Assembly: GCA_963736115.1 (NCBI GenBank) | Contig: CAVTNR010000012.1 | Location: 192,001-256,000, forward strand | Reading direction: 5' to 3' | DNA length: 64,000 nt | Source: an uncultured bacterium | GTDB taxonomy: Bacteria; Zhuqueibacterota; QNDG01; DTFT01 | Part shown: positions 3,879 through 46,234 of the stretch, piece by piece | Position numbering within the stretch: position 1 is the first letter of the stretch | How the letters are laid out: each line of letters starts with the position of its first letter | The notes under the pieces: generated by a model | Databases searched by the model: none | What the model was told of the DNA's origin: nothing | The model's input: only the letters and a program-made list of their open reading frames with translations | Translations under genes and position numbers: made by a program

Positions 3879-5582
3879 TCATTTCACCAGCATCATCTTC
3901 CGAACCTGCATCCGGTCCGCGGTGCGGAGCTTGCAGAAATACACGCCTCCGGGAAGTCCGGTTCCGTCGAATTCCGTTTCGTGACGCCCGGCTTCGAGCA
4001 CGCCGTCCAGAGGCACCGCCACCTCGTTCCCGACCGCATCATACAACGAGAGCCTGGCTTTTTCCCGGGACGGGAGGGTAAAGGCGATCTTCGTCGTTGG
4101 ATTGAACGGGTTCGGGTAATTGGGCTCCAGATAAAATCGTTCCGGGACAGGACTTTCATCCCCTTCAATCCCATCCTCCCACGGGCAGTCTCCGGCCGCC
4201 GGTTTGCCGCAGCAGACAGCCCCCGGGGAAAGATAGGCCGTCCCCCACAGGGAGGGATTGTGCCAGGTTGCATCCCCTGTATCAAGCCACCATTTCGAGA
4301 TATGATCGCGCTGAGTCCCGTCGTTGTCGTTCGACTGGATTTCAATGCCGAACTCACGTCCGGCGATGGGTTCGATAAAGAGGCTTGGCAGGGGCAGCTT
4401 GAATTCGAGCGTCCAGCCGTTTGGTTCCACGTTGTCCCGAACAACCAATTCCATGTATCGGCTGTTGAAATAGGATGGGCCAATGATCTGAGAAGGTTCC
4501 GTGAAATGGTGGTTGAATCGAAGCTCCATGTCATTCACGCCGTCGATGGCCGTCCCCTTGCTGTTGTCCCCGTCGATGAAGAATTCGAGTCCGTCCTGTT
4601 CGTAGGTATTGGAGTGCTCGTCTACGATGATGTCGTCCCATACCGTTGCGATGCCGTACAGGTAGCAATCATCCCAAGCCAGTGCCCCATGGAAATAGCC
4701 TTCTCTGTAATTGTCCGGCCATGGGCCCGGGGAGCCGATATTATCAAATGAGTTGGCCTGAAAAAGGCCCGCATATTCCCATACGTCATCCCGGAAACCG
4801 TCGATCACCGGCGGCTGGATGATGTTGGGAATTTCGAGTGTCTCCCCGATCGGCCGGCCGGTCAGGATGGCCGTTCCGAAGGTCGAGGCATTGTTCCACG
4901 ACGGATCGCCTTCGGCCACCCACCACTTGGAAACATGCTCACGGGCCGTGCCGTCATTGTCGTTCTGCTGGAGCTCGAAGCCGATCAGGGACTGCGCAAC
5001 CGGTTCCACGAAAATGCCGGCCAGCGGGAGCTTGATTTCGGTCATCCAGCCCGACGGAGCCTCGGCCGGATTGTCCACGATCGCGAATTCCACGCCGTCG
5101 CGGCCCCAGTAGGACTGGGCCTCGAGCGCCGCGACATCCGCGGCGCCGTGCCCGAAACGAATCTGCAGATCGTTCACGTTGTCATAGGCGCCTTCGGTCT
5201 TCGAATCGTCGCCGTCAAAGTACACTTCCCAGCTGTCACGCTCGTACGTGTTCGCGTGTACGTCCTGGATCACGTCGTCCTGCGTGTAGAGTAGAAGGTA
5301 AATGGCATCGTTATCCCACATCACACGGGACCAGCCCATCAGATCGGTGAAATCGTCGGGAGCCGATGTGCCGTTGGTATAGGATCTCTGAAATACATTG
5401 TCCGCATTATGCCACACGGCATCCATCTCGCCGTCTATCACCGGCGCGACGGTGGTAAACGGAATCTCGTACAGGTCGCCGATCATACCCGCGAAAGCGG
5501 GGACCACGGACGCCGGGATCGCAAAAGCCAGAATCGCGGAAATCCGCAGGTTCAACGCCGACCGGATGATTTGACGTTTCAC
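3879..5582 (-). CDS. Secreted protein with two CBM9-like sugar-binding domains and a T9SS-type C-terminal sorting domain (paralog A)
   Basis: Signal peptide; two PVIDG..D.VW / DSWEVYFDGD / GFE.Q.NDND repeats; NYPNPFNPTT...KMMLVK tail; GTG start after AAAGGAGG. Confidence 0.85.
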   Translation of the reverse strand: MKRQIIRSALNLRISAILAFAIPASVVPAFAGMIGDLYEIPFTTVAPVIDGEMDAVWHNADNVFQRSYTNGTSAPDDFTDLMGWSRVMWDNDAIYLLLYTQDDVIQDVHANTYERDSWEVYFDGDDSKTEGAYDNVNDLQIRFGHGAADVAALEAQSYWGRDGVEFAIVDNPAEAPSGWMTEIKLPLAGIFVEPVAQSLIGFELQQNDNDGTAREHVSKWWVAEGDPSWNNASTFGTAILTGRPIGETLEIPNIIQPPVIDGFRDDVWEYAGLFQANSFDNIGSPGPWPDNYREGYFHGALAWDDCYLYGIATVWDDIIVDEHSNTYEQDGLEFFIDGDNSKGTAIDGVNDMELRFNHHFTEPSQIIGPSYFNSRYMELVVRDNVEPNGWTLEFKLPLPSLFIEPIAGREFGIEIQSNDNDGTQRDHISKWWLDTGDATWHNPSLWGTAYLSPGAVCCGKPAAGDCPWEDGIEGDESPVPERFYLEPNYPNPFNPTTKIAFTLPSREKARLSLYDAVGNEVAVPLDGVLEAGRHETEFDGTGLPGGVYFCKLRTADRMQVRKMMLVK

Positions 5583-5708
5583 TTTTCCCTCCTTTGGACC
5601 ACGCTTGGGGTCGACCCCGGGATTCCGTGCAGAAAGACGGCTGAAGACGGGACCCTTCCGTCAGAGGGTTCCCCTCTTCTTTCCGTCTTTCTCCTGAAAC
5701 CAGCCGTG

Positions 5709-5746
5709 AAAAAAGCGCCCGCGGCCTTGACGGGCCGCGGGCGCTT
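5709..5746 (-). terminator. Intrinsic terminator after paralog B
   Basis: 12-bp GC stem gcgcccgcggcc/ggccgcgggcgc followed by U6 on minus strand. Confidence 0.85.
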
Positions 5747-5778
5747 ATAAACTCAGGCGAATAAACCGGAAAACCGGC

Positions 5779-7410
5779 TTATTTCACCAGCGTCATCTTG
5801 GTGGTCATGACGTTGTCCGCGGTCTGCAGCTTGCAGAAGTAGATGCCGCTGGACAGGTTGTTGGCGGTGAACTGGGCGGTGTAGCTGCCGGCGGGCATCA
5901 TGCCGTCCGCCAGAACCGCGACTTCCCGGCCCATCATGTTGAACACCGACAGGCGGACCTTGCCAGCGGACTTCAGGCTGTAGGGAACCGTCGTGGTCGG
6001 GTTGAAGGGGTTGGGATAGTTCTGGGACAGGCCGAAGTTCCGGGCGACCGGAGCCTGCTCGTTCACTGCGGTGGCGATACGCGAGCTCAGGTAGGCCGTT
6101 CCGAATGTGGAGGCATTGTTCCACGAAGGATCGCCGACTTCCGTCCACCACTTGGTGATGTGTTCACGCGCGGTGGCGTCGTTGTCATTGCCCTGAATTT
6201 CGAAGCCGAACTCGGAGCCGGCCACGGGTTCCAGGAAAATGCCGCCGAGCGGGAGCTTGATTTCCAGGTTCCAGCCGAGATCCGTGTCGACATTGACGAA
6301 TTCAACGCCGTCGCGTCCGAAATAGGACTGGGCGTCGATCTGGGAGGCGTCCGTGTAGGCATGGCCGAAACGCAGCTGCATGTCGTTCACGGTGTCGTAC
6401 GCGCCGTCCATCTTCGAATTGTCGCCGTCGAAGTAGACTTCGAAGCAGTCACGTTCCCAGGAGTTCGCGTGCGTGTCCTGGATGATGTCGTCCCAGGTTT
6501 CGATGAAGACATAAAAATTGTCGGCATCCCAAGCGGTCCAAGACTGCGCGAAATTGTCCTCGTAGCTGTCCGGCCAGTTGCCCGGCGAGCCCACATTGTC
6601 GAACGAGTTCTGCTGGAGCGGAGACGCAAACTCAAACCACGCGTCCTTTTCGCCGTCGATCACCATGGGAGCCAGGGTGGTCGGGACTTCCAGGGTCTCG
6701 CCGATCGGACGGTCGGTCAGAATGGCCGTGCCGAAAGTCGAGGCATTGTTCCACGACGGGTCGCCTTCAGCCACCCACCACTTGGAAACGGACTCACGGG
6801 CAGTGCCGTCGTTGTCGTTCTGCTGAAGCTCGAAGCCGATGAGCGAATTCGCAACCGGTTCCACGAAAATGCCGGCCAGCGGGAGCTTGACTTCGGTCAT
6901 CCAGCCCGACGGAGCCTCGGCCGGATTGTCCACAACCGCGAATTCCACGCCATCGCGGCCCCAGTAGGACTGGGCCTCGAGCGCCGCGACATCCGCAGCG
7001 CCGTGACCGAAACGAATCTGCAGGTCGTTCACGTTGTCATAGGCGCCGTCGGTCTTCGAATTGTCGCCGTCGAAGTACACTTCCCAGCTGTCACGCTCGT
7101 ACGTGTTCGCGTGGACGTCCTGGATCACATCGTCCTGCGTGTAGAGCAGAACGTAAATGTTCTCGCTATCCCACATCACACGGGACCAGCCCATCAGGTC
7201 GCTGAAATCATCAGGGGCCGCGGTGCCGTTGGTGTACGTGCGCTGAAAAACCTGGCCGCAGTTGTGCCACACGGCATCCATCTCGCCGTCGATCACCGGA
7301 GCCACGGTTGCCATCGGGATCTCGTACAGGTCGCCGATCATGCCCGCAAAGGCGCCGGTCGACAGAACGAGACAGCTCACAGCGATCAACACTTTCGCCA
7401 TTGATCTCAT
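5779..7410 (-). CDS. Secreted protein with two CBM9-like domains and T9SS-type CTD (paralog B)
   Basis: Same architecture as 3879-5582; ATG 7410 preceded by AAGGAG; NYPNPFNPTT...KMTLVK. Confidence 0.88.
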   Translation of the reverse strand: MRSMAKVLIAVSCLVLSTGAFAGMIGDLYEIPMATVAPVIDGEMDAVWHNCGQVFQRTYTNGTAAPDDFSDLMGWSRVMWDSENIYVLLYTQDDVIQDVHANTYERDSWEVYFDGDNSKTDGAYDNVNDLQIRFGHGAADVAALEAQSYWGRDGVEFAVVDNPAEAPSGWMTEVKLPLAGIFVEPVANSLIGFELQQNDNDGTARESVSKWWVAEGDPSWNNASTFGTAILTDRPIGETLEVPTTLAPMVIDGEKDAWFEFASPLQQNSFDNVGSPGNWPDSYEDNFAQSWTAWDADNFYVFIETWDDIIQDTHANSWERDCFEVYFDGDNSKMDGAYDTVNDMQLRFGHAYTDASQIDAQSYFGRDGVEFVNVDTDLGWNLEIKLPLGGIFLEPVAGSEFGFEIQGNDNDATAREHITKWWTEVGDPSWNNASTFGTAYLSSRIATAVNEQAPVARNFGLSQNYPNPFNPTTTVPYSLKSAGKVRLSVFNMMGREVAVLADGMMPAGSYTAQFTANNLSSGIYFCKLQTADNVMTTKMTLVK

Positions 7411-7451
7411 GTTCCTCTCCTTAAAATAGGATTGTTCAACCACCATCAACA

Positions 7452-7535
7452 TCAGAAAACGATTCCTTTCCCCTTTTCGCGTCCCTCGGAGTCCGGTGAA
7501 AGGGGAAAGGCCCCTCTGAAAAGGCCGGGCTCCAT
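7452..7535 (-). CDS. Putative 27-aa upstream ORF / leader peptide
   Basis: MEPGLFRGAFPLSPDSEGREKGKGIVF*; extended SD GAAAGGAGGTGA shortly upstream of the ATG; TGA overlaps an ATG in frame with paralog B (TGATG). Confidence 0.35.
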   Translation of the reverse strand: MEPGLFRGAFPLSPDSEGREKGKGIVF

Positions 7536-7773
7536 GCTCGCCTCACCTCCTTTCCTGCAATCCGTTCTTTAGATCAGGGGAGTACAGTATATGGCATTTT
7601 GGACGATCCACGGGAAGGCCCGGAACGGGTATTAAAAAAACGGGGATGAATAATCCTGTGGGTCGAGTCGTCATGTCTCTACCGAAACGAATGGACCTTC
7701 CCAACAACCGATTTGTGAAAGATGCCCGGCGGATGCCGCCGTTGGATGGAATTTTATTCGGGAAACGTATGTA

Positions 7774-7802
7774 AGTATACAATATTTTTTGAATTTTGTC
7801 AA
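7774..7802 (-). promoter_or_regulatory. sigma70 promoter for CBM9-like genes
   Basis: TTGACA-17-TATACT on minus strand. Confidence 0.8.
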
Positions 7803-8033
7803 GAAAATTTTCGTTCTAAATACTGAAAAAACCGGTGAGTAACACCCGGTCGTAACGCACCATTAACTCAATAATTACAATGCCTTGAATCGTATTTTTC
7901 ATATTATTCGTTATTTTGTTATACAAACGTTTCCGGTGTCCGGGATTTATATCGGCATGCCCGTTTTCGTGGTTTTGACCGGGATTTTCGTTTCGGGTTT
8001 ACAAAACCGGATCCGGATGCATCCGGATAGGCC

Positions 8034-8510
8034 TCAGCGGCGAACCGCTTCAGAGAGGAGCGTTTCGAGTTCTTCTATCTTGAACGGTTTCGAGAGAAAG
8101 GGCACCTGGGTCGATTTGAGGAATTGCATCGTCGGCGTGCTGATCGTATCGCCGGTCACGAAAATGATCCGCTTGAGCATGGCCGGCTGCAGCCGGGCGA
8201 TTTCCTCGTAAAAACGCTGTCCGTTCATGGAGGGCATGAGGAAATCGGAGAGTATGACATCGTAGCGGGTTTCGCGTATTTTATCGAGCGCGGTTTCACA
8301 GCTCGTCACCCATTCCACATCATAACCGAGATGACGCACGATGCGTTGGATGACATACCCCATCACTTCCTCATCGTCCACCGCAAGCACGCGCTTCCGG
8401 CGCTGCGGCTGGCCCGCCGCGGCCCTGGCCGACGGGCCGGTCTGCGGCGTCCTTACACGACCCCCTCCGGGGCCGTTGCGTTCAGGACCTGAAAGCCGGC
8501 TCACGGACAA
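8034..8510 (-). CDS. Stand-alone response regulator receiver protein
   Basis: VLAVDDE...YDVILSDFLMPSMNG...FVTG...KPF; start uncertain. Confidence 0.88.
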   Translation of the reverse strand: MSVSRLSGPERNGPGGGRVRTPQTGPSARAAAGQPQRRKRVLAVDDEEVMGYVIQRIVRHLGYDVEWVTSCETALDKIRETRYDVILSDFLMPSMNGQRFYEEIARLQPAMLKRIIFVTGDTISTPTMQFLKSTQVPFLSKPFKIEELETLLSEAVRR

Positions 8511-9219
8511 CCGCTCCCGCCCGTTCCGGATGCCGGAGCAGAACCGAACGTCGGATCATGATGAAGGGTCGGTCGCCGGACGGTCCGGGACAGGATACCG
8601 CGTCGTGTTCCGCGACCAGGAGCATGGGAACGGCCGGCATCGCCTGCTCGATGCCGTTCAGAAGAATCCAGCGGCCGTCGTCCAGCGCTGCCTCGTCCAG
8701 AACGATCAGGTCGAAGGTTTCCGGATCCTGAATTTTTCCCGAGACGTCCGGCCTCTCCACCCGGTAGCCGGCGCTCTCGAGTGCGGGTTTCAATCGGTCG
8801 TCCTGAAGCCTGTCGAAAAGCAGGATGCGGACAGGGGTCCGCGCCTCAGTACGTTCCGGGCTTTCCCGTCGTTCCGACTGGAGCAGACGCACCAGGTCGC
8901 CCACCGGAAAAGGCTTGGTCAGACGCGGGCAGTTTTCTATGCCGCGGCTATGCCCCTCAAGCGGATCCGCGGCGTATGCGGACATGAAAATGATGGGCAT
9001 GCGGGGATGACGCTCGCGTATGGCCGAAGCCAGCATGTAGCCGTTCATCGGCGTCATGCGGATGTCCGAAACCACGTAATCGCAGGGGGATTCGTCGAGC
9101 AGGCGCAATGCATCCGGCCCGTTCTGAGCCTGCATCACTGAAAAGGAATGCCGCTGAAGGGACAGTGAAAGCGTTTTCAGAACGTTTTTTTCATCATCCA
9201 CGAGCAGAATCGTGGACAT
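8482..9219 (-). CDS. Response regulator with one canonical and one degenerate receiver domain
   Basis: ILLVDDE...VVSDIRMTPMNG...MSAY...KPF, then RILLFD...FDLIVLD. Confidence 0.85.
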   Translation of the reverse strand: MSTILLVDDEKNVLKTLSLSLQRHSFSVMQAQNGPDALRLLDESPCDYVVSDIRMTPMNGYMLASAIRERHPRMPIIFMSAYAADPLEGHSRGIENCPRLTKPFPVGDLVRLLQSERRESPERTEARTPVRILLFDRLQDDRLKPALESAGYRVERPDVSGKIQDPETFDLIVLDEAALDDGRWILLNGIEQAMPAVPMLLVAEHDAVSCPGPSGDRPFIMIRRSVLLRHPERAGAVVREPAFRS

Positions 9220-9255
9220 CGGTGACTCCCAAGTTAAGATACAATAGATATATAG

Positions 9256-9270
9256 ACAAAATCCATGCCA
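9256..9270 (-). promoter_or_regulatory. Near-consensus sigma54 promoter upstream of the receiver genes
   Basis: TGGCATG-GATT-TTGT (correct spacing, -12 C replaced by T); palindrome ATTGCA-GGA-TGAAAT at 9355-9369. Confidence 0.5.
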
Positions 9271-9376
9271 TCGGGGATAAACGCTGACGTTTATTGATAT
9301 TTAAGAAGTTACGGAGATGTCACAATTCCGAAATTAGGCGGTTCCACAGCGGGGATTGCAGGATGAAATTAAAAAA

Positions 9377-9481
9377 AGTTCATAGTTTATAGTTCATAGT
9401 TCATAGAAAAAGAGTAATCTGTCAGTCAAGTATCCCATCTTTCTCTATTAACTATGAACCATGAACTATGAACAATGAACT
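9377..9481. repeat. Inverted heptamer arrays (foldback unit)
   Basis: (AGTTCAT)x4 ... spacer ... (ATGAAC[T/C/A])x4; same architecture at 31950-32057. Confidence 0.85.
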
Positions 9482-9485
9482 TGCT

Positions 9486-10850
9486 TTATTCTTTCTTCTT
9501 CGGCTCTATCCCGTATGTCTTCAGCTTCCGCCACAGGGTGGTGGTGGAAATGCCCAGCGTGTCCGAGGCCTGCTTCTGGTTCCACTGGTACTTTTCCAGC
9601 GTCTTGAGGATGTAATGCTTCTCGACTTCCTCGAGCGTCTGCTCCCCGAGGTTGTCCGGGATGTCCGGCCCGCGGCGCAGGGTGTCGCGGAGGGACTGGG
9701 GCAGGTCTTCGGGCGTGAGGGTATTGTGGTTCGTGAGAATCACGGCCCGTTCGATCACGTTCTCCAGCTCGCGGACGTTTCCCGGCCAGTGGTACCCGGT
9801 GAAAATTTTCATGGCTTCGGTCGAGATGGACGTGACGTTCTTGTTCTCCTTCTCCGCGAACCGCTTCAGAAAATGGTTGAATAGCAGGGGAATGTCGTCC
9901 TTCCGGCTCCTGAGGGCCGGCAGATGAATGGGAATCACGTTCAGACGGTAGAACAGGTCCTCGCGGAAGCGGCCCTCCTCGATGAGCTTGGGCAGTTCCT
10001 TGTTGGTGGCCGCGATGAGCCGCACGTCGACGTTCAGGGGATCCACGTCTCCCACCCGCCGGATCTCGCCGTCCTGCAGGAAGCGGAGCAGTTTGACCTG
10101 CGTGGAGAGCGCGGTCTCGCCGATCTCGTCAAGAAACAGCGTGCCGCCGTCCGCCTCCTGAAACAGCCCGCGCTTGTCGCGGATCGCCCCGGTGAACGAG
10201 CCGCGCACGTGCCCGAACAGCTCGCTCTCCAGGAGATTCTCCGGAATGGCGCCGCAGTTGATGGTGATGAAGGCGCGGTTCTTCCTCCGGCTGTTCAGGT
10301 GGATGGCCTTCGCGACCAGCTCCTTGCCGGTCCCGCTGTCGCCGGAGATCAGCACGGTGCTGTCGGTCTTCGCGATCTTCGACACCATGCCGAGCACCTC
10401 GAACATCTCCTTCGAATTGCCGATGATGTTCTCGAACTTGTATTTCTCCTTGAGCTCGTTCTGGAGCTGTTCGACCTCGCAGATGAGGTTCCTGTGCTCC
10501 AGCGCCTTCCCCACCAGCAGGAGCAGTTCGTCCTTCTCAAACGGCTTCTGGATGTAGTCGTAGGCACCCGACTTGATGGCCTCCACCCCGCTCTCGACCG
10601 TGCTGTAGGCGGTCATGACCAGGACCTCCGAGGAGGGATTCAGGGTCTTGACCTCGCGCAGAACGGCCAGGCCGTCCATTGGCTCCATCTTCAGGTCGGT
10701 GATGATGAGGTCGAAGAACCGGGTCTTGAACTTGTCGAGCCCCTCGGTTCCGCTGGACGCCTCCTCGACCCGGTATCCCATTTTCTGGAGCATCATCGCC
10801 AGGGTCGTGCGCACCGATTTCTCGTCGTCGATCAGCAGAATGTCCGCCAT
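9486..10850 (-). CDS. sigma54-dependent response regulator (NtrC/AtoC/ZraR family)
   Basis: REC + AAA+ ([29 protein letters not shown]) + Fis HTH. Confidence 0.96.
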
Positions 10851-10869
10851 GACCGGTCCCTTCCTCCCT

Positions 10870-13068
10870 CTATACTGTCTTGGGTGTGAGCCGGAGCCTC
10901 ACGATGAAGGCCGAGCCCCGGTCGACTTCGCTTCTCAGGATGATCTCGCCGTCATGCTCCTGAATAATGCGGCGGCAGATGGCGAGCCCCATGCCCGTCC
11001 CCTTCTCCTTGGTCGAGTAGAAGGGCTGAAAAATCTTTTCACGCTCCGATTCCGGCACGCCCGTGCCCGTGTCCGAAACGGAAACACAGGCGCACGCGTC
11101 CGCGTCGTCGCCGGAGAGAGTCGTGCGGACCGCGAGCGAACCGCCCGACGGCATGGCGTCCATCCCGTTCTGAATGAGGTTGGTCAGCACCTGCTGCAGC
11201 TGGTGCCGGTCGACGGGCACCTCGGTCACGGCGGGGTCGTAGTCCTCGACCCAGTCGATGCCGGGACGCGACGGCTCCCGGTTCCGCTTCACGATGTCGC
11301 GGACGAGCCGGTTGAGTTCCTCTTTCTGGATGGCCGGCTTTTTCGGCCGGGCGAATTTCAGAAAATCATCGACGATCGCGGCCAGGTGGTCCGTCTCCTC
11401 CTTGACGACGTCGAGGATCTGACGGCCTTCGGTCGTCAGTCCGGTTTCGTCCTTGAGGAGAGAGGCGGAGGTGGTGATGGCCACCAGCGGGTTCCGGATC
11501 TCGTGCGCGATGCCGGCCGAGAGCTCGCCGATGGCGGCCAGCTCCTCGCTCTTGAAAAGCCGCCGCTCGAGTTCGCGTTCGCGTGTCATGTCGATCAGCG
11601 ATACGAGCAGGTCCGCGGAGCCGGGTATGGGATCGGTGGTCAGGTGGACGTGGCGCAGGCGCCCGTTCCGATCCTCGAACAGGAACTCCCGGTTCTGGTT
11701 CCAGGCCCCGGCGTTTCCCGAGTAGAGCAGGGGAAGCTGCGATTTGCCGCTGAAAAACTGGAAAATGGACATCTGGCCTACGATCTCCTCACGGTCGTAT
11801 CCGCTGAGGGCCTCGAAGGCCCGGTTCACCTGCTTGAACCGGTTCTGATCGTCGAGGATCGCGAGGCTCATGCCGCCCGACTCGAACAGGTTCCGGTACC
11901 GCTCCTCCGAGGTTTTAATCTGCTCATAGAGTTGCGCGTTCTCGACGGCGTTGGCGGCCTGTTCGGCCACCATGACCAGGGTCCGGACGTCCTCGTCCGC
12001 GAAGACGCCGTCGCCGAGGTAGAAAACGCCGATCACGCCGAGCGTGTCGCCGCCGCTGAGGATGGGCGCGAATGCCCAGTTCGAACTCCGGGTCCGTTTC
12101 ATCCACTGCCGGAAAGCTTCGTCGGTGACCCCGTCCGGATCGGCGCAGATCACGGGCTTCTGCGCCAGAGAAGCTTCGAGCGCCGGATTGGCCATGGGCA
12201 GTTCGAGTGTGAACGCCACGTCGACGCACCGGGCCGTCATGCCCGCGCCGAATCCGGCCTTGCCCCGTATGGTTGCGGCCTTGACGTCCATCAGTCCGAT
12301 CCAGGCCTGGTCGAAACCCAGGGCCTGCACGAGGACCTTGGCGATATCCTGCAGGGTGCTGTCGAGCGTACCGAGATGCCGGGTGGCCGTGATGACCCGG
12401 CTCATCGCGATGTACCGGTGCGCTTTCTGTTCGGCCTGTTCATGGTCCGTGGCGTTCCGGAGGGCGAGCCCCAGTTGGCGGCCGATTTCCTCGAGCAGAA
12501 TGCGCTCCGCTTCCCCGAAAGTCCGGACGCGGTCCATGTGACAGGACAGCACGCCGATCGTCCGTCCATGGTCCATAACCGGAACGCCGGCGTATGTGAC
12601 GGTCTGCTCCGGGCCTGCCTCCTGCGGATCGGATCCGGGATGCTCGGGATAGCGGGAGAGATACAGGGGGTTTCCGTTGCGAATGATGCGCCCTGCCGGT
12701 CCGTGCTCGGGCGTCAGGTCGGACTCTCGGATGAAGTCCGGGGACAGCCCGAACCGGCCGGCCAGACGCAGGGTTCCGGACTCAGGATGGTTGAAGCTCC
12801 CCGCCGCAAGCGTCGGGGAATCTTCTATCCGTAGAGAAGAGACTTTTGATATTCGCTCGCTAGCCCCGCGGCAAGCCGCGGGGAATGCGCTCGCTGTCAG
12901 ATTCAGGTGGATATCCACGCCCCCGAATCCGAAACGGCGGCGCATCCACTCGCCCGCGGACCTGAGCACGTCCGTCGTTCGGAGGCTCTCATGGAGCGAG
13001 GCAAAAAAACGCCAGCCTTCGATCGTCGGATCGACCTGGGGCCCGGTGGGTGTGGTTTCTTTCCGCAT
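10870..13068 (-). CDS. GAF-GAF-PAS sensor histidine kinase
   Basis: H-box IAHEIRNPL, N-box, DTGTG, FYSTKEKGTGMGL; no obvious TM segment. Confidence 0.93.
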   Translation of the reverse strand: MRKETTPTGPQVDPTIEGWRFFASLHESLRTTDVLRSAGEWMRRRFGFGGVDIHLNLTASAFPAACRGASERISKVSSLRIEDSPTLAAGSFNHPESGTLRLAGRFGLSPDFIRESDLTPEHGPAGRIIRNGNPLYLSRYPEHPGSDPQEAGPEQTVTYAGVPVMDHGRTIGVLSCHMDRVRTFGEAERILLEEIGRQLGLALRNATDHEQAEQKAHRYIAMSRVITATRHLGTLDSTLQDIAKVLVQALGFDQAWIGLMDVKAATIRGKAGFGAGMTARCVDVAFTLELPMANPALEASLAQKPVICADPDGVTDEAFRQWMKRTRSSNWAFAPILSGGDTLGVIGVFYLGDGVFADEDVRTLVMVAEQAANAVENAQLYEQIKTSEERYRNLFESGGMSLAILDDQNRFKQVNRAFEALSGYDREEIVGQMSIFQFFSGKSQLPLLYSGNAGAWNQNREFLFEDRNGRLRHVHLTTDPIPGSADLLVSLIDMTRERELERRLFKSEELAAIGELSAGIAHEIRNPLVAITTSASLLKDETGLTTEGRQILDVVKEETDHLAAIVDDFLKFARPKKPAIQKEELNRLVRDIVKRNREPSRPGIDWVEDYDPAVTEVPVDRHQLQQVLTNLIQNGMDAMPSGGSLAVRTTLSGDDADACACVSVSDTGTGVPESEREKIFQPFYSTKEKGTGMGLAICRRIIQEHDGEIILRSEVDRGSAFIVRLRLTPKTV

Positions 13069-41779: not shown

Positions 41780-44518
41780 TCACCCCAGCGTCTCCCGCTG
41801 TTTTCTCAGCGTCGCGAGTTTCTCCTCGAAGTCCGCCTGCTTCCGCCGCTCCTTTTCCACGACCTCCTGCGGCGCGCGACCGATGAAATCCGCGTTGGAA
41901 AGCTTCCCCTCCAGCCCCTTGAGAAGGCTTTCCATGCGGCCGATCTCCTTCGAGATCCGCTCCTTCTCCACCGCGAGGTCGATGAGTCCGCCGAGCGGGA
42001 GAAAAAGCTCGACGTCCCCGATCAGGCCGGCCGCGGCGCCGGCCGGCTTCTGCCCGCCGGACTGTCGAATCACGGATTCAACATTCGCGAGCTTGTCGAA
42101 ATACGCCGCATTTTCCATGAGGAGGCGGCATTTCGACTCATTGCCCCTCAGGATGAGGCCGGCTTTCTTTTCGGGCGGCACGTTCATGCCGCTCCGGATG
42201 TTCCGCACCGCGCCGATGGCCTCCTGAATCAGGCCGACCGCGGTCTCGGCCTCCTCGTCCATCAGGGACGGATCGGTTTTCGGATAAGGCCGGTTCAGGA
42301 TGGTGTGGACTGCTGAAGCCGGATCGGCCGGAACCGGCAGGGACTGCCAGATCGCCTCGGTGATGAAGGGCATGAAAGGATGCCCCAGCCGGAGTATGGA
42401 TTCCAGAACATGGAGCGCCGTGGTCCTGGCCGAGGCCTGCGCCTCTGGATTCCCCGCGTCGTAGAGCCTGGGTTTCGCGAGCTCGAGGTACCAGTCGCAG
42501 TACTCCGACCAGACAAAACGGTATAGCGCCTGAGCGGCCTCATTGAACCGGAACTGCTCGAGGCTGGACCGGATTTCCCCGGTCGCGGCATTGAGCCGGC
42601 TCAGGATCCAGCGGTCCGCGAGGTCGGACCGGCCGGAGCCGCCGGGTTTGATCGGATCCTCCAGAACCTGGTTCTCACCGAGGTTCATCATCACGAAGCG
42701 CGAAGCGTTCCACAGCTTGTTCGCGAACTTCTGCCCCATTTCCACCAGCGGGTGGTCGAAGTGCACGTCTCCGCCCAGGGGCGTCTGAAACACCATGGTC
42801 AGGCGGATGGCGTCCGCGCCGTACGCGGGCACGCCGGCTTTATAGGATGGATTGTGCTTCGCGAATTCGCCCACGGTTTTCGCGTCCGCGCCGTCAATGA
42901 GCCAGATGGGATCCGGGGAGTTGCCGAGGGATTTGGACATCTTGCGGCCGGACAGGTCGCGGATCATGCCGTTGAAATACACGTCGCGGAACGGCGCCTC
43001 GCCGGTGAACTCAAGCGAGGCCATGATCATCCGCGCCACCCAGAAGAAAATGATGTCCGGACCGGTCACGAGCGAGTCCGTGGGAAAGAACGCCTTCAGT
43101 TCGTCGGTCTTCTCCGGCCAGCCCAGCGTGGAGAACGGCCAGAGCCAGGAGGAAAACCATGTGTCGAGCACATCCGGATCCTGCTCGAGCTTCCGGCTCC
43201 CGCACTCGGGGCAGGCCGCGGGCCTGTCTTCGCGGTGCACGGACATGTGTCCGTTTTCACAGGTCCATACGGGAATCCGGTGTCCCCACCAGACCTGGCG
43301 GCTGATGCACCAGTCGCGGATGTTCCGCATCCAGTGAAAATACGTCTCCTCCCACTGCTTCGGATGGAAGCGGATGCGGCCCTGCTCCACAGCGGCGAGG
43401 GCCGGCTCGGCCAGCGGCTGCATCTTCACGAACCACTGATCGGAAAGAAACGGTTCGACGATGGTATTGCACCGATAGCAGTGCGGAATGGGCGTGACCC
43501 GCGGCTCGTCGGACAACACGCGGCCCTGTTCCCCGAGGTCCCGCAGAATCCGCTTTCGGGCCTCGAACCGGTCGAGTCCATTGTACGGGCCCGCGTTCGC
43601 ATTCATTACGCCCCGGTCGTCGATGACCGATATCGCCTCGAGCCCGTGTCTCCGGCCGACTTCAAAATCGTTGAAATCGTGGGCCGGCGTGATTTTCACC
43701 GCGCCGCTCCCCTTCTCGGGGTCGGCATATTCGTCCGCAACGATCGGGATGCGGCGGTTCATGAGCGGCAGGATCACCGTTTTTCCGACCAGTGCCTTGT
43801 ACCGGTCATCGTCCGGATGCACCGCGACCGCGGTGTCGCCGAGCAGGGTCTCCGGCCGCGTGGTCGAGACGCGGATGACCTGGTCCGATCCTTCCAGGGG
43901 ATAGGCAATGGTCCAGAATTTTCCATTGACGTCCGTGGCGGGCGCTTCCTCATCGGCCAGCGCGGTCTGACAGCGCGGGCACCAGTTGATCAGGCGGCGG
44001 CCGCGATAGATCAGTTTCTTTTCATAAAGACGGACGAACACCTCGCGCACGGCTCTGGAAAGCCCCTCGTCCATGGTGAAGCGCTCCCGCTCCCAGTCGC
44101 ATGAGGCGCCCAGTTTGCGCAGCTGCTGGAGTATGATGCCGCCGTATTTCTCCTTCCATTCCCAGACGCGGGCGATCAGTTTCTCGCGGCCCAGGTCGTG
44201 GCGCGTCAGACCCTCGGCCTTGAGCGCGGCCTCGACCCTGTTCTGCGTGGCGATGCCCGCGTGGTCCGTGCCCGGCATCCACAGGGATTCAAACCCGTCC
44301 ATGCGCTTCCAGCGGACCAGCAGGTCCTGGAGAGTGTTATTGAGGATATGTCCCATGGTCAGCATGCCCGTCACATTGGGCGGCGGGATCATCACCGTGT
44401 ACTTGGGTTTCGGGCTTTTCGGGTCCGCATGGAAAAGCCGGTTGTCCATCCAATACTGATACCATCGGGATTCCACTTCAAGGGGATTGTACACTTTATC
44501 GAGAACAGGACGCGACAT
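41780..44518 (-). CDS. valS: Valine--tRNA ligase
   Basis: PPPNVTG.L.MGH, DHAGIATQ, DWCISRQ.WWGH, KMSKS, C-terminal coiled coil. Confidence 0.98.
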   Translation of the reverse strand: MSRPVLDKVYNPLEVESRWYQYWMDNRLFHADPKSPKPKYTVMIPPPNVTGMLTMGHILNNTLQDLLVRWKRMDGFESLWMPGTDHAGIATQNRVEAALKAEGLTRHDLGREKLIARVWEWKEKYGGIILQQLRKLGASCDWERERFTMDEGLSRAVREVFVRLYEKKLIYRGRRLINWCPRCQTALADEEAPATDVNGKFWTIAYPLEGSDQVIRVSTTRPETLLGDTAVAVHPDDDRYKALVGKTVILPLMNRRIPIVADEYADPEKGSGAVKITPAHDFNDFEVGRRHGLEAISVIDDRGVMNANAGPYNGLDRFEARKRILRDLGEQGRVLSDEPRVTPIPHCYRCNTIVEPFLSDQWFVKMQPLAEPALAAVEQGRIRFHPKQWEETYFHWMRNIRDWCISRQVWWGHRIPVWTCENGHMSVHREDRPAACPECGSRKLEQDPDVLDTWFSSWLWPFSTLGWPEKTDELKAFFPTDSLVTGPDIIFFWVARMIMASLEFTGEAPFRDVYFNGMIRDLSGRKMSKSLGNSPDPIWLIDGADAKTVGEFAKHNPSYKAGVPAYGADAIRLTMVFQTPLGGDVHFDHPLVEMGQKFANKLWNASRFVMMNLGENQVLEDPIKPGGSGRSDLADRWILSRLNAATGEIRSSLEQFRFNEAAQALYRFVWSEYCDWYLELAKPRLYDAGNPEAQASARTTALHVLESILRLGHPFMPFITEAIWQSLPVPADPASAVHTILNRPYPKTDPSLMDEEAETAVGLIQEAIGAVRNIRSGMNVPPEKKAGLILRGNESKCRLLMENAAYFDKLANVESVIRQSGGQKPAGAAAGLIGDVELFLPLGGLIDLAVEKERISKEIGRMESLLKGLEGKLSNADFIGRAPQEVVEKERRKQADFEEKLATLRKQRETLG

Positions 44519-44570
44519 GGACTCCTCGTCATTAGGAATGCGAAGGGGGGAGTTACAAGTAAATCATTGA

Positions 44571-44599
44571 AAGTTAGGGAATTCTGTATTTATTGTCAA
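44571..44599 (-). promoter_or_regulatory. sigma70 promoter for valS
   Basis: TTGACA-17-TAACTT. Confidence 0.7.
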
Positions 44600-45032
44600 G
44601 TCGGTAGAAAGTAAATGGAACACGGATGGACACGGGTAAAGAAAAGACTCTAAGCAGACCTTCAATACTTAACAAATCTAATTGCTTGGTCCCGCGTCGT
44701 GGGAGGCGCCTGCATCAACGCTGCATGACGCGCTCAGTACCACAGGAGCAAGAGGCTCCTGCCTCTGCGAGTCCGCGGGCTCTGATCGCTCGGGAGATAT
44801 CTCCCGGGCGATCCAAAAGCCTTCAGAAGGGAAATATGCGCAAAAAAGCGATTTCATATAGCAATTCATCAATTTCAATTTTATATATAGTATGTCGTTT
44901 CTGTCATAATTATTTCAAAACGGAATATCAATTTCATTTTGTTAATAAATATGTCAATTTGAAATCAGCCGTGACAAAACACGCACGTTCGTAAAGCTAT
45001 AAATTATAATTACATAGAAAAAGCATTCGTAC

Positions 45033-45048
45033 TGGCACCCCGTTTGCT
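45033..45048 (+). promoter_or_regulatory. Consensus sigma54 (-24/-12) promoter
   Basis: TGGCACC-CCGT-TTGCT; AT-rich upstream region with ATTTCA-N3-TGAAAT-like palindromes (44851, 44912, 44951). Confidence 0.8.
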
Positions 45049-45058
45049 TATCCTATAA

Positions 45059-45132
45059 ACAGTATCAAAAAACCTCCTTTCCTCACAACCCCTGAAGTCC
45101 GCATTGCCCGCAACGATGCGGACTTCTTTTTT
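45059..45132 (+). ncRNA. Putative sigma54-dependent small RNA with anti-SD seed
   Basis: No plausible ORF between promoter and terminator; unstructured AACCTCCTTTCCTCACAACCCC followed by 11-bp stem GAAGTCCGCAT/ATGCGGACTTC and T6. Confidence 0.65.
45094..45132 (+). terminator. Intrinsic terminator of putative sRNA
   Basis: gaagtccgcat-tgcccgcaacg-atgcggacttc-tttttt. Confidence 0.85.
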
Positions 45133-45137
45133 CTTCC

Positions 45138-45166
45138 TTGACTTCCTTTGAATTATTCAGTAGCAT
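45138..45166 (+). promoter_or_regulatory. sigma70 promoter for prenyltransferase
   Basis: TTGACT-17-TAGCAT just downstream of the terminator. Confidence 0.5.
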
Positions 45167-45253
45167 AATTTGTTGTGACAGTGCTGCTTCAGCGGTCCTT
45201 TCCGCGTCTGGTACGGGGAGCCAAGAACCACAGTTGAAACAGGAGGTAACGGG

Positions 45254-46234
45254 ATGCTAATGAATGCCAGCCACCCCGAAGACCGTCCCGGAGCGGCGAT
45301 GCCCGCCGGAAAGCCCTCGTTGATCCGAATGGTGCGCGCTCCGTTTCTTTCATCGATCCTGGCGCCGATCGTTGCGGGAACCCTGGTCGCGGTCTCCGTC
45401 ACAGGCGAATTCCGGCTTGCCGGATTTCTCCTGGCGCTGGCCCTGGGCGTCGGATTGCACGTGGCCACCAACGTGTACAACGACATCTACGACACGATCC
45501 AGGGATCCGACCGCATCAATATGCTCCGCAACGAATTCAGCGGCGGCTCCGGCATTCTGGTGGAACACCCGGAATTCATGAGCCGGATGCGCTGGACGGC
45601 CAGGGGCGGCCTGGCCCTGGCGACGATCGCGACGATCGGATTGATGTTCGTGATCCGGCGATCCCTGTGGCCTCAGTGCCTGGCGCTGTTCACTGTTTCC
45701 GTTTTTCTGAGTAAATACTACACCGCCCATCCGATCAAGCTTGCCTACCGGGGTCTGGGGGAATTTTTCGTGTGGTTCGCCTTCGGCCCAATGGCGGTCT
45801 GGATCGCATCCGTCAGCCAGAACCTGGGATGGCACGCCCTCATTGTCACGGCCATGCCTGCAACCGGCATCAGCACACTCTCCATTCTGCTCATCGGCCA
45901 GATCATCGACCTTCCAGCGGACGAGGCGACCGGCAAGCACGGAATCGCCGTTCGAATGGGAGTGCCTGCCACGGTCCGGGGTTTCGGCGCGGTTCAACTG
46001 GTTCTGGTGCTCAACCTGGCCCTTCTCGCGTGGCGCATGGGGCGGCACGGTTGGCCCGTACTGCTCGGCGCCGTGCCGGTCGCGTTTCTTTTGCCCGGGA
46101 TCTGGAAGCTTCTCGACGGCGGCAGAGCCGACACCGCGGCCCTCAAGGCGGCGGCGAAATCCAACGTCCAATTGCACCTTCTGTTCTCACTGCTGTTCAT
46201 CATCGGCCTGCTGATTTCACTGTCGCTGAAATAG
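45254..46234 (+). CDS. UbiA/MenA-family prenyltransferase (second paralog)
   Basis: RAPFL, NVYNDIYD..QGSD...FSGGSG, YTAHPIKLAYRGLGE, QIIDLPADE.TGK. Confidence 0.88.
   Translation: MLMNASHPEDRPGAAMPAGKPSLIRMVRAPFLSSILAPIVAGTLVAVSVTGEFRLAGFLLALALGVGLHVATNVYNDIYDTIQGSDRINMLRNEFSGGSGILVEHPEFMSRMRWTARGGLALATIATIGLMFVIRRSLWPQCLALFTVSVFLSKYYTAHPIKLAYRGLGEFFVWFAFGPMAVWIASVSQNLGWHALIVTAMPATGISTLSILLIGQIIDLPADEATGKHGIAVRMGVPATVRGFGAVQLVLVLNLALLAWRMGRHGWPVLLGAVPVAFLLPGIWKLLDGGRADTAALKAAAKSNVQLHLLFSLLFIIGLLISLSLK

Follow-up and report, generated by a model that had tools for sequence, protein, structure and literature searches.

Comparison with related genomes indicates that the 735-bp gap between valS and a UbiA-family gene in the window (the whole 64,000-nucleotide stretch of DNA analysed here) contains a real, conserved small RNA gene, which is one member (type A) of a two-branch family. 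As far as searched, the family appears to be confined to one uncultured order related to Bacteroidota (among named organisms, its RpoN is closest to that of Bacteroidota, with 44-45% identity). We consider it probable that the gene encodes a non-coding small RNA (sRNA) of about 74 nt, driven by sigma-54 and an enhancer, whose pyrimidine seed masks Shine-Dalgarno regions. At the level of sequence, the comparison shows a -24/-12 promoter, a palindrome at a fixed position, a 35-nt unpaired region with invariant pyrimidine blocks and a covarying terminator.

Every element claimed by the original prediction lies in this gap. The promoter, the A/C/U-rich tract and the hairpin followed by T6 were all recovered where they had been placed, no ORF lies between promoter and terminator, and the 11 base pairs given for the hairpin are 11 perfect pairs within the 13-pair hairpin of the terminator scan. 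A sigma70-like promoter, said to follow the terminator, was also found there. The features of the locus are listed below.

41780..44518, minus strand: valS, the divergent neighbour (NCBIfam NF004349 equivalog; score 1215.8 bits, cut-off 704)
44913..44925, plus strand: candidate enhancer (UAS) box 1, TTTCAAAACGGAA, a TTTCA-N3-TGAAA-type palindrome 120 bp 5' of the promoter (from comparison; activator binding presumed)
44932..44944, plus strand: candidate UAS box 2, TTTCATTTTGTTA, at -101 (box scan)
44952..44964, plus strand: candidate UAS box 3, TGTCAATTTGAAA, at -81 (box scan)
45033..45048, plus strand: sigma-54-type promoter TGGCAC-N5-TTGCT with -24 GG and -12 GC (exact pattern match and homologues); TGGCAC at 45033-45038, N5 = CCCGT, TTGCT at 45044-45048
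45059..45132, plus strand: predicted small RNA of about 74 nt (fold and covariance-model matches)
45072..45084, plus strand: seed 1, ACCTCCTTTCCTC, predicted to be unpaired (fold; 45072-45081 identical to the 3' tail of the genome's 16S)
45088..45093, plus strand: seed 2, ACCCCT, a predicted unpaired C-rich motif adjoining the terminator (CCCC conservation)
45094..45132, plus strand: intrinsic terminator, a 13-bp hairpin at 45094-45126 followed by T6 at 45127-45132 (terminator scan, fold and covariation)
45138..45166, plus strand: sigma70-like promoter TTGACT-17-TAGCAT, putatively serving the downstream UbiA-family gene (9 of 12 matches)
45254..46234, plus strand: UbiA-family prenyltransferase gene, a neighbour outside the unit (Pfam UbiA; below the MenA cut-offs)

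The 5' end of the predicted RNA was placed from the -12 element, 11 nt past the -12 GC, and the 3' end from the T-run. The resulting 74 nt (45059-45132) fold as 35 unpaired 5' bases and a hairpin, with a minimum free energy of -21.3 kcal/mol (z = -5.7); 0 of 200 shuffled sequences fold as well. According to the terminator scan, the hairpin (45094-45126) consists of 13 pairs, 7 of them G-C, and a loop of 7. Across an alignment of 28 homologues, which was fitted to the covariance model and therefore favours the structure somewhat, 10 of 11 hairpin pairs change on both sides and 98.6% of hairpin cells are paired, compared with 29-47% when the partner is slid; the family value was reached in 0 of 500 shuffles. 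Compensatory changes in the hairpin were also carried by two distant-family loci from the first DNA search. The 28 homologues have no ORF in common, and the sole start codon in the RNA is inside the hairpin. What had been proposed as an independent non-coding unit, running from promoter to terminator, thus holds up as a conserved unit of about 74 nt with a sigma-54-type promoter and no common ORF. Contigs of two metatranscriptome and two DNA runs matched only short conserved pieces of valS or the UbiA-family gene, none of them within about 44402-45300, and are uninformative on expression.

The distribution of the family was followed by DNA search and by covariance models. When 41 relatives were searched at the DNA level, the stretch was recovered from three genomes of the same genus and, weakly, from two of another family; promoter, seed and hairpin were common to all six loci of this first comparison. 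The first model (R1), built from the transcribed part only, gave 27 matches in 23 of the 31 genomes of the order, and strong matches (E <= 0.01) to the second model (R2), run on 151 genomes of the phylum, were found only inside the order, in 26 of the 31 genomes. Of 17 weaker R2 matches that were inspected, 10 had promoter, seed and hairpin, including type-B copies in family f4; type A was absent from all four f4 genomes searched. After inspection, promoter and seed prove to be conserved in relatives, with at least one complete promoter-seed-terminator unit in 25 of the 31 genomes of the order; 12 carry both types, and no complete unit was found in G011, G013, G016, G017, G018 and G028. Matches to R2 in other families of the phylum were weak, and the seven best outside the order came without a sigma-54 motif. 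Metagenomes were scanned by seed pattern, which returned 42 matches; the seven with a hairpin all had the promoter and the upstream box as well. The remaining 35 are unrelated CT-rich DNA, so the seed pattern alone is not specific.

Taken by itself, the promoter match is not significant, because the strict pattern TGGCAYN5TTGCW, with one match in the 64-kb window against 0.12 expected, occurred at least once in 11 of 100 shuffles, and a wider pattern (TTGCH) has 13 matches in the 3.34-Mb genome. The unit is placed beyond chance by the joint recurrence of promoter, seed and terminator in relatives. A sigma-54 element stands upstream of all 28 first-round units, though the search model held no promoter: TGGCA-N6/7-(T/C)TG(C/T) was present 0-18 nt 5' of the model start in 27/27 R1 matches, and the type-B copy of the window's own genome likewise carries the element. 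It was also found in the 10 further units among the weaker matches and in 7/7 metagenome units, and some type-B copies have TTGT, or TGGTC at -24.

Further upstream, 16 of 19 type-A loci carry a TTTCA-N3-TGAAA-like palindrome (counted with at most 2 mismatches) 120-125 bp 5' of TGGCA, and the seven metagenome units all have a box at the same place. A second box often follows 20 or 40 bp after the first in type-A loci; one about 20 bp past the first is present also in G002, G015, G023 and G030, and the box at -81 also in G001 and G003. The upstream palindrome is described here as a positionally fixed candidate activator site. Among the seven type-B loci, no such box was found at -120 to -125, and several of them have in common a GGAAAAA(A/T)(G/T)TGCC-like motif about 100-150 bp upstream that is unlike the type-A box. 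The genome encodes one rpoN and has 19 PF00158 matches, of which about 15 are full-length sigma-54 activator genes. When other members of the UAS regulon were sought, 12 of 170 relaxed sigma-54-like sites in the genome had a box (at most 2 mismatches) 75-135 bp upstream, and among these 12 only the valS-side sRNA locus had three boxes. The sole perfect box elsewhere in the genome is inside an archease ORF. Outside this locus, no second convincing promoter with the same UAS was found in the genome.

The two branches are told apart by seed and hairpin. Type A reads AACCUCCUUUCCUC..ACCCCUUG with a GUCCGUG hairpin, and type B reads AUUCCUUUCCUCUUCCCCU with a GCCGUUGUU hairpin. A scan for sibling copies in the window's own genome found one, of type B, on contig C14 at about 77612-77702 on the plus strand (locus L089, about 1473-1563), which has the promoter TGGCACACGTTTTGT (TGGCAC-N5-TTTGT), the type-B seed and its own hairpin.

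Relatives were also checked for a unit beside valS, and it was present there, divergent from valS, in 17 of the 21 type-A loci (16 by Pfam, the window's own by NCBIfam); the valS neighbour is an exception or unknown in G002, G003, G015 and G020. The genes downstream of type A vary (UbiA, DUF438-hemerythrin, radical SAM, DUF6599, GT2, S41 and S9 peptidases, FGGY kinase, UvrC), and 12 of the 18 loci with such a gene carry it on the opposite strand, which argues that the unit does not act as that gene's leader. Type B lies upstream of a MutY-like gene in four of seven loci and after an M20 peptidase gene in three of seven. In this genus the candidate valS -35 hexamer, ATGACA at 44907-44902, lies beyond the boxes, with box 1 at 5 bp from it, so that the valS mRNA should not overlap the RNA.

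Several minor features of the flanks may be recorded. On the valS side the best sigma70-like site is ATGACA-18-TAAAAT (44907-44878, minus strand), which, if it is the valS promoter, would give valS a leader of about 350 nt; a second candidate valS promoter is nearer the gene, with TTGACA at about 44598. Positions 44519-44907 (minus strand) of the window hold GC-rich palindromes, for example around 44790-44815, with no Rfam match. On the other side (45133-45253), the sigma70-like block right after the terminator (CCTTGACTTC...) recurs in all three same-genus relatives (L002-L004). The untranslated region past this block in G001 also aligns with that of the window, and the first downstream ORF is UbiA in the window and a DUF438/hemerythrin/PAS protein in G001 and G002.

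The original prediction described the RNA as a mimic of the 16S anti-Shine-Dalgarno tail. The identity itself stands: the genome's 16S gene ends GGATCACCTCCTTTCTA, ACCTCCTTTC in the RNA is a 10-nt copy of this 3' tail, and relatives of the same genus copy 11 nt. Mimicry is, however, not what the family conserves, as ACCTCCTTTC is found in 15/21 type-A and 0/7 type-B copies, and the CCUCC core is absent from 6/21 type-A and 7/7 type-B copies. CTTTCC is present in 15 of the 21 type-A and all seven type-B copies, CCCC in 18 and six, respectively, and the best conserved block of the 28-sequence alignment is TCCTTTCC. Relatives that differ from CCUCC read, for example, CCUUC or UUUUUC, and this replacement of C by U fits pairing with a purine-rich partner because U still pairs with G. 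Shine-Dalgarno sites are in real use in this genome, where GGAG peaks 9-14 nt ahead of ORF starts and is found at 29% of longest-ORF starts, compared with 14% of internal control positions. No Hfq (PF17209), ProQ or RRM_1 gene was found in the genome, which at 87% completeness does not prove their absence.

By analogy, the RNA most likely acts like other sRNAs with CU- or C-rich seeds, which mask ribosome binding sites. A response-regulator-type enhancer-binding protein would bind the palindrome and allow sigma-54 RNA polymerase to initiate in response to a signal. The unpaired pyrimidine seed (CCUCCUUUCCUC followed by CCCCU) would pair with purine-rich Shine-Dalgarno regions (GAGGAAAGGAGG-like) of other mRNAs and block 30S binding there, probably without Hfq or ProQ. 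The type-B RNA has the core UCCUUUCCUC in common with type A under another upstream motif; with different upstream motifs and a common core, the two copies would feed different signals onto overlapping targets.

Candidate targets were ranked by short-seed duplexes against the 2539 ORF starts of the genome; a ranking by long-window duplexes was left unused, as it was dominated by long interior loops in GC-rich DNA. Type IX secretion cargo genes (PF18962; 57 in the genome) are over-represented among the best 2% of sites, with 5/55 for type A (p = 0.007), 7/53 for type B (p = 1.4e-4) and 3/52 for the 16S-tail control (p = 0.11). Cargo genes differ for the 16S-tail control too (Mann-Whitney p = 1e-4), and the sRNA exceeds the tail only marginally (p = 0.058); the enrichment largely reflects stronger Shine-Dalgarno sites in cargo genes. 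Envelope and polysaccharide genes are among the top candidates, as are genes for an Orn/Arg decarboxylase, a 1276-aa cargo protein and a GH11-BACON-CBM60 cargo xylanase (contig C31:13358-14935). A CBM9 type IX cargo gene in the window (5779-7452) is another of them.

The leader of this CBM9 gene (about 7400-7560, minus strand) has three purine-rich boxes, CAGGAAAGGAGG, GGGGAAAGGAAU and AAGGAGAGGAA, with which its CU-rich stretch, GGCCUUUCCCCUUUC, could form pairs in cis. The leader may be subject to regulation and may also be a target of the sRNA. In the surrounding minus-strand cluster (3879-13068 of the window), two paralogous CBM9 type IX cargo genes stand with genes for a GAF-PAS histidine kinase, a stand-alone receiver protein and a sigma-54 response-regulator activator.

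Individual mRNAs were considered as specific targets. One hint points to rpsU: in 29/29 genomes of the order having the gene (loci L295-L323), it is preceded by an extended GAAAGGAGG-type Shine-Dalgarno site with the consensus (G/A)AA(A/G)GGAGG, which lies 10-14 nt ahead of the start codon wherever the latter is clear; the site in G024 is a perfect 12-mer complement, and the genome's own rpsU (G000:C3:135785-135946) ranks 69th of 2539 for type A. This rank and the proteobacterial type of the genome's bS21 speak against rpsU as a specific target, as does the finding that cognate pairs are not more stable than non-cognate ones (mean -19.6 against -20.3 kcal/mol; permutation p = 0.88). Perfect 12-mer complements are not enriched in the order (28 non-sRNA matches against 38 for the reversed control), and of eight ORFs scanned downstream of such complements the one with a Pfam family is rpsU. 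Duplexes of the sRNA with the start region of its own valS were no better than shuffled controls across 17 loci, and valS was rejected as a target. Feedback on the activator gene in the window (9486-10850, minus strand) was likewise set aside: this gene ranks 12th of 2539 in its own genome and has orthologues in all 31 genomes (identity of 63-98% for the 28 in which orthology of the top match is clear), and the complementary site is kept only within the genus. As the searches established no target, the original term 'translational repressor' remains an inference.

Other readings of the locus deserve to be weighed. It is unlikely that the RNA serves as a signal-induced, soluble copy of the 16S 3' tail which competes with ribosomes for the longest Shine-Dalgarno sites and, with only some of this lineage's genes using such sites, shifts translation away from a strong-Shine-Dalgarno regulon (the rpsU leader, conserved throughout the order, and the leaders of type IX-secreted glycan-degrading proteins). 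If it did, bS21 supply could even alter ribosome composition and the two paralogues, with their different enhancers, would feed two signals into the switch. We regard it as quite unlikely that the RNA is instead a protein decoy, in the manner of GlmY and CrcZ, which titrate proteins; the free tail copy would then titrate a factor whose normal ligand is the tail or CU-rich RNA, for instance an S1-like protein, a maturation RNase or a protein of the ribosomal platform. The ten nucleotides identical to the genome's own tail, the failure to find a conserved mRNA target and the lack of any Hfq or ProQ gene among those found would suit a decoy, as would the finding, in a section of PMC9976891, that the proteins bS21, bS18 and bS6 of Bacteroidia have the 16S tail as a ligand. 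Against this, tail identity is missing in the 6/21 type-A and 7/7 type-B copies noted above, and the genome's bS21 is far closer to proteobacterial bS21 (E = 1.6e-16) than to that of Flavobacterium johnsoniae (7jil_z, E = 1e-3). Since Shine-Dalgarno sites are in use in this genome, it is unlikely that the tail is sequestered as in Bacteroidia. Each RNA, moreover, holds one short copy of the motif, whereas known decoys are not limited to one.

The remaining readings concern the neighbouring genes or chance. That the unit mainly serves valS, with activator binding or divergent sigma-54 transcription modulating the valS promoter and the RNA as a by-product, seems improbable: the divergent arrangement in 17 of 21 type-A loci and the 5 bp between box 1 and the candidate valS -35 in this genus speak for it, but no other part of the unit is as conserved as the transcribed seed, and the hairpin covaries, neither of which a by-product would need. 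The distance from the valS -35 to the UAS also varies widely among families, and type B, with the same RNA design, stands beside other genes (MutY-like in 4/7 loci). We hold it to be very improbable that the unit is a sigma-54-driven leader or attenuator of the UbiA-family gene, in which the CU tract would pair in cis with an AGGAGG site after read-through. The next gene here is indeed on the same strand, 121 nt past the T-run and with an AGGAGGT site, but even members of one genus do not have the same downstream gene (in G001 and G002 it is DUF438/hemerythrin), this gene is on the opposite strand in two-thirds of the type-A loci (12/18), and the unit ends in a strong terminator with a separate sigma70-like promoter after it. 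The chance pairing of a promoter-like motif with a neighbour's terminator, with no gene between, is scarcely credible. The weak significance of the strict promoter pattern in 64 kb (11/100 shuffles) would allow it; the joint recurrence of promoter, UAS, seed and covarying hairpin in 25/31 genomes and 7 metagenome contigs would not, nor would the position of valS, which is on the other strand and ends 2.7 kb away. Comparative data already contradict this reading. The preferred explanation is still that of a sigma-54-dependent sRNA masking ribosome binding sites.

Judged by database searches, the RNA belongs to no known RNA family and is wired like Qrr. Its novelty was examined against Rfam: no family matches at its gathering score in the 64-kb window or in 20 homologue loci, the best sub-threshold match being CyaR_RyeE (RF00112; 17.5 bits, E = 2.9, gathering score 47), and the Qrr covariance model gave none at E <= 10 in 44500-45300. 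Like the Vibrio Qrr RNAs, this is a short RNA with its own predicted sigma-54 promoter, paralogues with one common seed and an intrinsic terminator. Unlike them, it has a CU-rich, anti-Shine-Dalgarno-like seed and belongs to another lineage, with no match in sequence or structure; no Hfq gene was found here, and the gene adjoins valS rather than its activator gene. Qrr sRNAs have four hairpins, and this RNA has one. The geometry of the upstream palindrome is alike, 5-3-5 in both, with LuxO boxes at qrr1-4 given as TTGCA-N3-TGCAA in Table 1 of PMC10328515 and TTTCA-N3-TGAAA here, a resemblance that is not evidence of orthology.

Like RsaE/RoxS of Firmicutes and CyaR of enterobacteria, the RNA has unpaired motifs, rich in C/U, that are the complement of GGAGG or GGGG within ribosome binding sites; it differs from them in lineage and architecture, CyaR scoring far below the gathering score and RsaE giving no match. 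RsaE/RoxS and CyaR use sigma-70-type promoters, and the C- or CU-rich seed sRNAs of Firmicutes act without obligatory Hfq. Pxr of Myxococcus is a sigma-54-dependent sRNA. Passages of PMC3045617, PMC11187230 and PMC10117139 describe further ones: GlmY/GlmZ, CJnc230 of Campylobacter and NcS25 of Burkholderia. The RNA studied here would resemble these four systems in promoter class and in dependence on an enhancer-binding protein; it differs in having no homology to them and unrelated seeds and targets, and all of them are from Proteobacteria or Myxococcota.

A parallel of another kind is bS21 autoregulation. An extended rpsU Shine-Dalgarno site is reported in sections of PMC9976891 for many Flavobacteriales and Chlorobia; PMC13000453 and PMC7797042 also bear on it. 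The long rpsU site in 29/29 genomes is a likeness, the sRNA seed being its complement. The Bacteroidia/Chlorobia system, as outlined in the same sections of PMC9976891, acts via ribosomes without bS21 and not through an sRNA; here, unlike the Bacteroidia system, Shine-Dalgarno sites serve many genes, bS21 differs in type from that of F. johnsoniae, and sRNA and rpsU do not covary.

The unit represents a previously undescribed sRNA family of a known kind, with two paralogous branches, and it would be the first small regulatory RNA family found described for this uncultured lineage. A full-text literature search found no sigma-54-dependent sRNA for Bacteroidota-related phyla and no paper on such an RNA in these lineages, though papers beyond its coverage could hold one. 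The unit would be a complete regulatory design of enhancer box, promoter, seed and terminator, and would extend to a distant branch a plan familiar from Vibrio Qrr and a handful of further Proteobacteria. With the covariance model, annotators can label the gene in metagenome-assembled genomes.

Beyond the order, R2 recovers CU-rich tracts with a terminator behind them and no sigma-54 motif, as at L126 (G140), L131 (G083) and L130 (G121). The copies in G140 and G083 resemble each other (..CUUUCCUCCUCC..AAAGGCUGGUG hairpin) and may represent another small RNA family, in family f8.
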